Source of the DNA: Escherichia coli
GTDB lineage: Bacteria > Pseudomonadota > Gammaproteobacteria > Enterobacterales > Enterobacteriaceae
Reading direction: 5' to 3' (one strand)
Assembly: GCF_003334315.1 (NCBI RefSeq)
Contig: NZ_QOWR01000016.1
DNA: 64,000 nt
In this document: piece by piece, positions 61,881 to 64,000 of the stretch
Layout: every line of letters begins with the position of its first letter
How positions within the stretch are numbered: the first letter of the stretch is position 1
Notes under the pieces: generated by a model
The model's input: the letters and a program-made list of their open reading frames with translations, nothing else
Databases searched by the model: none
Told to the model about the DNA's origin: nothing
Made by a program: the position numbers and the translations under genes

Positions 61881-62759
61881 TTAGGCTTGCAGCTCCAGTC
61901 CTGCCAGCCGCCGCCAGTAGCCGTTACAGTCGCTGTTCGCCGTCAACGGCAGTGGTGCAGCGCCATTTTCATTAGCGCGGAAGGCGTCGAGCATCGCGAA
62001 AGTGTCAGTACCCTGCGGTGACAGGCGGACCACATCAACCAGGCCCTGCATGGATGCCAGCTCGTTACCGAGGTTGTAAACGTAGCCGCTCATGGTCTGA
62101 ATGCCATTGAGTACAAACACTTGTTGGTTTTCCTGCGACAGCACGTTGCGCCCGTTCGGATACTTAATGCAGCAGGTTTCACACTCATCTTTCGGGCGGT
62201 CTTCCGAACGCGCGGTAAAGCAGCGGGCGGAGTAGGCCAGCGGCAGATGACCGTAGCTCAGGACTTCCACTTCAAACTGGTTACGAATGCCCAGCTCATC
62301 GCACTGATTAAGCAGATTCACCAGCCAGTCGCGGGAAAGCTCCACTGGCATACACCAGCGCATCATGCCCTGTTTGAGCAATATTTTCAGTGTCACCGCG
62401 TTGTAGCAGTTCAGCGCGTGCCCGGCGACGAACGGCAGTTTGCGTTCAGCGCACATATTCACCACGCCGAGATCGCTGGCTTCAATCAGAAACTCACCGT
62501 TCTCAACATAGCGTTTCAGTTCGCCCAGTTCAGATGATGCCTGCACCAGCGCCAGCGTGGAGAGCACAATCTGCTTACCACTCCCGGCGAGCGATTTTGC
62601 CATCTCCAGCCAGTCGCCAACTTTGGTTGCCCGACGCTTGCTGCATACCGCTTCACCAAGATAAATCACGTCGACGCTGCTGGTGGCGGCCTGCTGATAA
62701 AATTCTTCCAGCGTCTCTTTTGGCCAGTACCACAGCACTGGCCCTAAGGAATATTTCAT
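61881..62759 (-). CDS. ubiV: U32-family protein UbiV (O2-independent ubiquinone biosynthesis)
   Basis: Track ORF extends to ATG 62777; ATG 62759 (MKYSLGPVLWYW..., 292 aa) has a purine-rich run upstream; Cys cluster CFTARSEDRPKDECETCC. Confidence 0.8.
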   Translation of the reverse strand: MKYSLGPVLWYWPKETLEEFYQQAATSSVDVIYLGEAVCSKRRATKVGDWLEMAKSLAGSGKQIVLSTLALVQASSELGELKRYVENGEFLIEASDLGVVNMCAERKLPFVAGHALNCYNAVTLKILLKQGMMRWCMPVELSRDWLVNLLNQCDELGIRNQFEVEVLSYGHLPLAYSARCFTARSEDRPKDECETCCIKYPNGRNVLSQENQQVFVLNGIQTMSGYVYNLGNELASMQGLVDVVRLSPQGTDTFAMLDAFRANENGAAPLPLTANSDCNGYWRRLAGLELQA

Positions 62760-62767
62760 TGCTTTTC

Positions 62768-63763
62768 TCACTGCCATTTACGGTGATATGCGCCAAGAGT
62801 GGTTTGCGTGCCTTCGGACATCGACCCGAGCGTCTCCATCCACGCGCTTTGCGGTACAAAGTTTTGCGGATCGGCCTTACAACGGTCGATAGCCTGACGC
62901 CAGACTTTCGCCACCTGGCTGACATACGCCGGGCTACGCTGGCGGCCTTCAATTTTCACCGAAGCAATATTCGCCGCCATTAACTCCGGCAGCAGTTCCA
63001 GGGTATTGAGACTGGTTGGTTCTTCCAGCGCGTGATAGCGCTCGCCGTCCACCAGATAACGCCCTTTACATAGCGTCGGATAACCTGCGTTTTCGCCGTC
63101 CAGATAACGGTCGATCAGCACTTCGTTCAGGCGGGATTCCAGCCCCTGCGGCGTTTGTTGCCAGCGCACGAAACGGGCCGGAGAACACGCGCCTATGGTG
63201 TTGGGCGACTCACCCGTCAGATACGACGACAGATAGCAACGACCTTCCGACATAATGCACAGGCTGCCGAAAGCAAAGACTTCCAGTGGTACAGGTGTGA
63301 CCCGTGCCAGTTGTTTCACCTGATGAATCGACAACACGCGCGGCAGCACCACGCGAGCAACGTCAAAATGGCGATGATAAAAGTTAATCGCCTCTTCATT
63401 GGTCGCCGAAGCCTGCACCGATACGTGGCGCTCAATATGCGGATAACGCTCGGCGGCGTACTCCAGCATGGCGAGGTCGGCGAGGATCAGCGCGTCGGCA
63501 CCCAGCTGCGCCGCCATATCCACGGCGCGCTGCCAACGGGCGTAACCGTCCGGATGCGCAAAAGTGTTAATCGCGATGTGAAGTTTGCGGCGATGTTGAT
63601 GGACAAAACTCACCGCTTCCTGCAATTTTTTCTCGGTAAAGTTAAGGCCGGCGAAGTGACGGGCATTGGTATCATCTTTTAGCCCGATATAAACAGCATC
63701 TGCGCCGTTTTCGATGGCCGCCTTAAGCGCCGGGAGATTTCCGGCAGGGCAGAGCAGCTCCAT
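62768..63763 (-). CDS. ubiU: U32-family protein UbiU (O2-independent ubiquinone biosynthesis)
   Basis: Track ORF to 63790; ATG 63763 (MELLCPAGNLPALKAAIENGADAVYIG..., 331 aa) with AGGA SD; Cys cluster CIMSEGRC. Confidence 0.9.
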   Translation of the reverse strand: MELLCPAGNLPALKAAIENGADAVYIGLKDDTNARHFAGLNFTEKKLQEAVSFVHQHRRKLHIAINTFAHPDGYARWQRAVDMAAQLGADALILADLAMLEYAAERYPHIERHVSVQASATNEEAINFYHRHFDVARVVLPRVLSIHQVKQLARVTPVPLEVFAFGSLCIMSEGRCYLSSYLTGESPNTIGACSPARFVRWQQTPQGLESRLNEVLIDRYLDGENAGYPTLCKGRYLVDGERYHALEEPTSLNTLELLPELMAANIASVKIEGRQRSPAYVSQVAKVWRQAIDRCKADPQNFVPQSAWMETLGSMSEGTQTTLGAYHRKWQ

Positions 63764-63971
63764 AATTTTTCCTGAAGGTTGCGCTATCAAAACGCAAAAA
63801 TGTTAACGAACTGGGATTTTAGTTAACCTTGCTGCGACAATTTTTGATTTAAGGCAGTTAAAGTTGTATTGGTGGTAGCAGCAATTTCATATGGAATTGT
63901 TGATTTATACCGCTATGTTATTTTTCTGATATGGCAAAATAGGATGATTGTTGAAACAGGGAGTAAAACTC

Positions 63972-64000
63972 GTGTTGGATAAACTGCGTTCCCGTATTGT
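63972..64000 (+). CDS. ubiT: SCP2-domain protein UbiT (YhbT), first 9 codons only; GTG start
   Basis: GTG TTG GAT AAA CTG CGT TCC CGT ATT = MLDKLRSRI with GGGAG about 9 nt upstream; divergent from ubiU; truncated by window end. Confidence 0.45.

Follow-up and report, generated by a model that had tools for sequence, protein, structure and literature searches.

In Escherichia coli K-12, UbiU and UbiV are needed for anaerobic UQ8, and together they make up a heterodimer that holds two [4Fe-4S] clusters (PMC6747719; PMC10470549). The closest described relatives of this system are TrhP (YegQ) and RlhA (YdcP), which share with UbiU and UbiV the U32 domain and a four-cysteine [4Fe-4S] motif. Like UbiUV, they carry out O2-independent hydroxylation, and prephenate is proposed as their oxygen donor. 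However, their substrates are tRNA or rRNA, whereas the substrate of UbiUV is a polyprenyl-phenol. For UbiUV itself, prephenate is a proposed donor, suggested by analogy with RlhA. A second comparison concerns UbiJ, which is the SCP2 accessory factor in the aerobic Ubi metabolon. It shares the SCP2 lipid-binding domain with UbiT and has the same proposed role of presenting ubiquinone intermediates. Nevertheless, UbiT is the partner of UbiUV, and UbiJ cannot replace it. In K-12, the genes concerned are ubiT (yhbT) and ubiU (yhbU)-ubiV (yhbV), b3157-b3159 (PMC6747719; PMC10470549).

We analysed a window of 64,000 nucleotides of E. coli DNA (contig NZ_QOWR01000016.1), in which the last 2 kb hold the same locus with the same gene order. 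The features read from this stretch were as follows.

61881-64000: yhbW-ubiV-ubiU / ubiT locus of the E. coli chromosome.
61881..62759, minus strand: ubiV (yhbV) coding sequence, 292 aa, U32-family [4Fe-4S] protein, start ATG at 62759.
62760..62777, minus strand: ubiU-ubiV junction, with the ubiU TGA at 62768-62770, the 8-nt spacer and a non-start ATG at 62777.
62768..63763, minus strand: ubiU (yhbU) coding sequence, 331 aa, U32-family [4Fe-4S] protein, ATG at 63763 and TGA at 62768-62770.
63770..63773, minus strand: ubiU Shine-Dalgarno sequence AGGA, read from the sequence.
63764-63971: ubiU-ubiT intergenic region, 208 bp.
63959..63963, plus strand: ubiT Shine-Dalgarno sequence GGGAG, read from the sequence.
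63972..64000, plus strand: 5′ end of ubiT (yhbT), GTG start and first nine codons MLDKLRSRI (to 63998), with the coding sequence continuing past the window.

We consider it almost certain that this stretch is the E. coli O2-independent ubiquinone-biosynthesis locus under Fnr control. The original prediction had named ubiV-ubiU and a divergent ubiT of this pathway. RefSeq annotation and NCBIfam equivalogs both back that assignment, and every feature that the prediction placed was found where it had been placed. Publications and annotation already cover the genes and what they do, as well as the GTG start of ubiT, the 292-aa length of UbiV and the two Fnr sites, and nothing in them is new.

A 2.5-kb query spanning the feature found the locus in 5425 of 5426 complete E. 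coli genomes, and the matching genomes annotate the stretch as yhbW, ubiV, ubiU and ubiT. The identities of ubiV, ubiU and ubiT are confirmed by what RefSeq annotates in K-12 MG1655 and in near-identical genomes. Between K-12 MG1655 and the window there were two differing bases in 2200 (61801-64000; b3157-b3160), and the ubiU-ubiT intergenic region, including the two Fnr sites F1 and F2, was the same in both. At the protein level the window differs from K-12 by one residue each in UbiV (A29V) and UbiU (Q221L). One near-identical genome, here called L001, overlapped the window over 61000-64000 with a sole mismatch at base 63102, in ubiU. For comparison we took the locus from a further 80 species of Enterobacteriaceae, and in every one ubiV directly followed ubiU. 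A divergent ubiT start upstream was found in 76 of them; it was undetected in three, and one was too short upstream.

The two minus-strand genes had been described beforehand as adjacent U32-family genes with cysteine clusters, and this description held, with Pfam matches for both products and the ligand cysteines in place. UbiU matched Peptidase_U32 (PF01136) over residues 76-330 (E = 6.2e-67) and UbiV over residues 93-236 (E = 1.6e-9). Against its NCBIfam equivalog NF047963, UbiU scored 557.5 bits (cut-off 440), with residues 1-331 on profile positions 1-331; against the TrhP model it scored just 165 bits (cut-off 534). UbiV scored 365.1 bits against the equivalog NF047965 (cut-off 275) and 441.8 bits against NF011991. 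UbiU contains C169, C176, C193 and C232 (CX6CX16CX38C), and the 292-aa form of UbiV contains C39, C180, C193 and C197 (CXnCX12CX3C). The same cysteines were shown to be the [4Fe-4S] ligands by Pelosi et al. 2019 (PMC6747719). A PDB sequence search with UbiU and UbiV returned no relatives at E<=0.001.

Only nine codons of ubiT lie within the window, and the full coding sequence from L001 was used in the profile test. UbiT scored 153.6 bits against the SCP2 equivalog NF047962 (cut-off 46.9). The predicted GTG-started ubiT at the window edge, preceded by GGGAG and beginning MLDKLRSRI, was confirmed at 63972. Beyond the window its frame stays open, as a coding sequence of 174 codons followed by yhbS in both L001 and K-12. 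The start codon was GTG in 77 of the 77 loci where ubiT could be located, and the GGAGTAA before it was at least 90% conserved (77 sequences). The ubiT cloning primer of the published study swaps this GTG for ATG (PMC10470549). Two in-frame TTG codons, at 63948 and 63951, were rejected as starts; they are 5′ of the Shine-Dalgarno sequence and lie at or beside the published start of the proximal ubiT promoter P2.

The intergenic region contains two sites that match published Fnr sites exactly (PMC10470549).

63844..63857: Fnr site F1, TTGATTTAAGGCAG, activating ubiUV.
63900..63913: Fnr site F2, TTGATTTATACCGC, activating the proximal ubiT promoter P2.

A scan of 63764-63971 with TTGAT-N4-ATCAA found no 14-mer within two mismatches. 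At three mismatches the scan gave 305 matches in the window where about 247 would be expected, and it was set aside because so many matches could not single out F1 and F2. Each of the two sites has three mismatches, that is, 7 of 10 consensus positions, and consists of one perfect half-site and one degenerate half. Both lie within a 13-nt direct repeat, AATT(T/G)TTGATTTA, the copies of which are 56 nt apart. The original prediction had expected an Fnr site here but had identified none with confidence, which is understandable given the mismatches. The sites are present, but the strict form in which they were to be sought is absent at up to two mismatches. It had also proposed that the lack of an Fnr-like site would speak against the reading. 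Under the strict scan this reasoning would mislead, because F1 and F2 are half-consensus sites. Functional Fnr sites may keep one consensus half, and relying on the strict scan would have meant wrongly rejecting a correct reading. In contrast, conservation across species recovers both sites cleanly.

It could be argued that the TTGAT half-sites arose by chance in AT-rich sequence and that anaerobic control lies elsewhere or is exerted by another factor. The three mismatches in each site agree with such a view, as does the frequency of TTGAT/ATCAA in the window, which is about 3 per kb. The region also has other conserved blocks, and a ChIP-exo study placed a YbcM peak in it. We nevertheless judge this explanation extremely improbable. 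In 77 aligned enterobacterial intergenic regions, with a median identity of 69% to the window, the TTGAT half-sites of F1 and F2 were invariant (77/77). Their non-consensus partners, GGCAG and (A/G)CCGC, were preserved as well, with GGCAG and CCGC at least 99% conserved. Columns conserved at 95% or more made up 13 of 14 in F1 and 11 of 14 in F2, compared with 42% of all 208 columns. Fnr ChIP signal at this position has also been reported. By ChIP-chip, Grainger et al. 2007 detected Fnr at yhbT/yhbU; the site that they predicted, TTTAACTGCCTTAAATCAAAAATT, is the reverse complement of window positions 63839-63862 and covers F1 (PMC1802558). In the ChIP-seq study of Myers et al. 2013, yhbUV is in the FNR regulon as a category 1, directly activated operon (PMC3688515). 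The published mutagenesis refutes the chance explanation. With five bases of F1 or F2 mutated, Fnr-dependent expression was lost both from plasmid fusions and at the locus on the chromosome (PMC10470549). Mutation of F1 abolished anaerobic UbiV production (Arias-Cartin et al. 2023, mBio, PMC10470549), and mutation of F2 abolished anaerobic induction of UbiT but left its aerobic basal level untouched (PMC10470549). The suggestion that the 208-bp divergent region is the likely anaerobic control region is thus borne out by the published Fnr ChIP and F1/F2 mutagenesis.

Two further alternatives concern the proteins. According to older annotation, UbiU and UbiV would be collagenase-like U32 peptidases without a role in quinone synthesis. 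The name of the Pfam family, Peptidase_U32, points in this direction, and in many genomes the RefSeq product name of UbiV is still 'U32 family peptidase'. Against the equivalog-level matches of both proteins, and against the genetics and biochemistry from the same species, in which anaerobic UQ8 was lost and [4Fe-4S] clusters and a heterodimer were found (PMC6747719; PMC10470549), we give this reading practically no chance. The paralogs TrhP and RlhA, too, are RNA hydroxylases rather than proteases. The other alternative is that UbiV starts at ATG 62777, with 298 aa. The longest ubiV ORF (61881-62777) is open from this codon and has a further in-frame ATG at 62759. As the ubiU TGA is at 62768-62770, the former overlaps ubiU by 10 nt and the latter leaves an 8-nt gap. 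The original prediction gave both figures correctly, but the ambiguity that it saw between the two codons disappears with the species comparison. The start ATG-AAA-TA (Met-Lys-Tyr) matching 62759 was present without exception in the 80 Enterobacteriaceae species; its distance from the ubiU stop was 8 nt in 69 of them, 7 nt in 10 and 5 nt in one. An equivalent of ATG 62777 is in frame and open in 63 of the 80 species, and overlaps of 4 to 10 nt are a common form of translational coupling. However, this ATG is a product of UbiU's conserved C-terminal Lys-Trp codons (AAATGG), which force it. In 10 species its equivalent lies in another frame, in five a stop closes the frame and in two GTG stands in its place; 17 of the 80 species thus have no usable in-frame ATG here. 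Beyond Met-Ala-Val, the additional residues of the long form are not conserved. No Shine-Dalgarno sequence lies upstream of it (CACCGTAA), whereas purine-rich, Shine-Dalgarno-like bases over the ubiU stop (GTGAGAAAAG; TAGGAA or TAAGGA in other genera) sit at the position expected for ATG 62759. The NCBIfam profiles align from residues 7-8 of the 298-aa form, and RefSeq and K-12 annotate UbiV as 292 aa. The published cysteine numbering fits the 292-aa form only (PMC6747719), and the cloning and expression primer for ubiV, ATGAAATATTCC..., uses the short form, MKYSLGP (PMC10470549). A start at 62777 is therefore very unlikely. UbiV starts at ATG 62759 and has 292 aa, and this start is not really ambiguous. 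From the purine-rich bases at the ubiU stop, it seems that ubiU and ubiV are probably translationally coupled across the 8-nt spacer.

Besides F1 and F2, the conserved blocks of the intergenic region were both Shine-Dalgarno sequences, TAAAAT and GATATGGCAAAAT. The block TCCTGA at 63770-63775, in the area of the ubiU Shine-Dalgarno sequence, was at least 90% conserved in the 77 sequences. Two of the blocks provide putative promoter elements.

63816..63821, minus strand: putative -10 hexamer TAAAAT of the Fnr-dependent ubiUV promoter; GATTTTA at 63815-63821 is at least 90% conserved.
63935..63940, plus strand: putative -10-like hexamer CAAAAT of ubiT P2, within the conserved GATATGGCAAAAT (63928-63940).

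TAAAAT begins 29.5 bp from the centre of F1 (63850.5). This would place the ubiUV transcription start near 63808-63809, consistent with the report that F1 is 36 nt upstream of the ubiUVp start (PMC10470549). A class II geometry (-41.5) at ubiUV predicts a start near 63809. The start of P2 is about 33 nt downstream of F2 (PMC10470549), which would put it near 63946-63948 on the plus strand, and the position of CAAAAT agrees with this. We infer that F1 is about 41.5-43.5 bp upstream of the ubiUV start and F2 about 40 bp upstream of the P2 start, both as in class II. The spacing of F1 and F2 would be like that of class II Fnr-activated promoters, where the site is near -41.5. They differ from class II promoters with a full Fnr box in keeping one consensus half, with 7/10 matches. 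The aerobic basal level of ubiT comes from a distal Fnr-independent promoter, P1 (PMC10470549). The published promoters were missed by a consensus sigma-70 scan. Its only promoter-like match, from 63790 to 63762 on the minus strand, was rejected; it overlaps the ubiU start codon and is off the published start sites.

In the mechanism proposed for this locus, the enzymology, the Fnr dependence and the transcription starts come from the literature, and this analysis supplies the gene identities, the starts, the cysteines and the evidence that the sites are present and conserved. Without O2 or under microaerobic conditions, Fnr would bind the two half-consensus sites in the 208-bp region. At F1 it would switch on the ubiUV operon leftward, and at F2 it would boost the ubiT-yhbS operon rightward. 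The UbiU-UbiV heterodimer, with one [4Fe-4S] cluster per protein, would then hydroxylate the ubiquinone ring without O2, and UbiT, as an SCP2 lipid-binding accessory factor, would present the lipid intermediates. The distal Fnr-independent promoter would keep UbiT present in air.

It is possible, although we rather doubt it, that the locus has undescribed regulatory elements beyond Fnr. The candidates are a hairpin before yhbW, a GTTAAC pair and a palindrome resembling a PdhR box. We regard the hairpin, the lineage-specific palindrome and the private UbiU Q221L as minor leads.

The hairpin takes up nearly the whole 80-bp ubiV-yhbW spacer and has a 17-bp outer stem.

61801-61817 and 61861-61877: outer arms of the hairpin.
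61823-61849: inner stem of the hairpin.

Its predicted fold has -28.8 kcal/mol (z = -4.5). The arms were recognisable by fuzzy search in 70 of 71 loci, with a separation of 38 to 158 nt, and they paired in the minimum-free-energy fold of all 71. All but two substitutions in the 12-bp core preserve G·U pairing on the sense strand. A terminator scan gave no terminator-like site after ubiV, and Rfam on 61600-64000 gave only sub-threshold chance matches (mir-1285, 27 bits vs 56; CRISPR-DR22, 22 vs 50). The ribosome-binding region of yhbW falls under the 3′ arm. The hairpin could thus prevent YhbW, an O2-dependent monooxygenase, from being translated when anaerobic ubiUV transcription reads through into yhbW. 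If the spacer also contains a separate yhbW promoter, its transcripts would escape this block. The gene yhbW belongs to the Mar/Sox/Rob/RamA regulon, and RamA bound and activated a yhbW promoter fragment in vitro. A hairpin arm could equally be a marbox instead. An exact 12-mer, AGTTAAAGTTGT, occurs both at 61849-61860 and at 63856-63867. We took it as chance, because at the centre of the ubiU-ubiT copy conservation across species is only 10-70%.

The change UbiU Q221L is due to an A at 63102 and was found in none of the 5424 complete E. coli genomes matching a 61-nt query. This base is one of three private single-base differences in 25 kb relative to the closest genome. In the other species, position 221 is Q in 73 of 80 and L in Citrobacter amalonaticus. 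UbiV A29V, on the other hand, is common to 111 complete E. coli genomes.

A conserved GTTAAC...GTTAAC pair flanks the ubiUV -10 element and start site. A reading of these blocks as an ArcA site was set aside; they are spaced at 21 bp rather than at 11 or 22 bp. In most genera other than Escherichia, a 15-bp palindrome, ATTG(G/A)(T/C)-N3-(A/G)(C/T)CAAT, lies between F1 and F2. In 36 of 77 sequences it was within one mismatch of the PdhR-box consensus, and it is presumably GntR/PdhR-box-like. The five Escherichia sequences have ATTGGT-N6-AGCAAT in its place. The palindrome may overlie the aerobic ubiT promoter, and it may have been lost in Escherichia through a 3-bp longer spacer.

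The spacer between ubiV and yhbW, the next gene after it, was entirely occupied by a single hairpin, in which outer arms of 17 nt each enclosed an inner stem:

61801-61877, minus strand: long hairpin between the ubiV stop (61881) and the yhbW ATG (61800)

Its predicted fold had an energy of -28.8 kcal/mol (z = -4.5). By fuzzy search, the arms were found in 70 of 71 enterobacterial loci, among which the loop length ranged from 38 to 158 nt. With two exceptions, substitutions in the core were G·U-compatible on the sense strand. There was no T-run downstream of the hairpin, and its 3′ arm covered the ribosome-binding region of yhbW. 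One possibility is that the hairpin shields the translation of yhbW from read-through of ubiUV. Alternatively, its arms may function in the DNA as marbox-like sites, because yhbW is a member of the Mar/Sox/Rob/RamA regulon.

An exact 12-mer, AGTTAAAGTTGT, occurred once in each of the intergenic regions flanking the ubiUV operon (61849-61860 and 63856-63867), and the second copy adjoined the published Fnr site F1. The central bases of this copy were poorly conserved in other species, so the repeat probably arose by chance and we rejected it as meaningful.

In most Enterobacteriaceae outside Escherichia (loci L006-L081), we found a palindrome between F1 and the other published Fnr site, F2:

equivalent to window position 63868-63886, ubiU-ubiT intergenic region: 15-bp palindrome, ATTG(G/A)(T/C)-N3-(A/G)(C/T)CAAT

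The form ATTGGT-N3-ACCAAT was perfect in 12 of 77 sequences and had one mismatch in another 24. All five Escherichia sequences, including the window, had ATTGGT-N6-AGCAAT instead, with a spacer longer by 3 bp. The palindrome, which resembles a PdhR/GntR-type operator, overlapped the region of P1, the aerobic ubiT promoter. It was not mentioned in the publications consulted.

Strong conservation was also seen at the ubiUV promoter, in the block AATGTTAACGAACTGGGATTTTAGTTAACC (63799-63830). It contained two GTTAAC hexamers 20 bp apart, one on either side of the segment that holds the -10 hexamer of ubiUV and its inferred start site. Since this conservation exceeds the requirement of a -10 element, the block may be a binding site of another regulator. 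A YbcM ChIP-exo peak has been reported within the ubiU-ubiT intergenic region.

Compared with K-12, the window had non-synonymous differences in UbiV (A29V; base 62674, codon 29) and UbiU (Q221L; base 63102, codon 221). The former also occurred in 111 complete genomes of E. coli, whereas none of the 5424 complete genomes that matched had the base giving the latter. Q221L could be either a variant private to this sequence or an error in sequencing. Of 80 other enterobacterial species, 73 had Q at residue 221, which is located 11 residues N-terminal to the cluster ligand C232.

Elsewhere in the window, RNA features were identified by Rfam matches at gathering level, together with two tRNAs:

14563-14670: ArcZ sRNA (Rfam)
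36316-36437: greA leader (Rfam)
43090-43173: tRNA
46959-47032: tRNA
47124-47224: rimP leader (Rfam)
51923-51993: naRNA4 (Rfam)
53506-53620: S15 leader (Rfam)
53850-54021: SraG sRNA (Rfam)

All of them are expected for the E. coli region ftsH...metY-nusA-infB-pnp...mtr.
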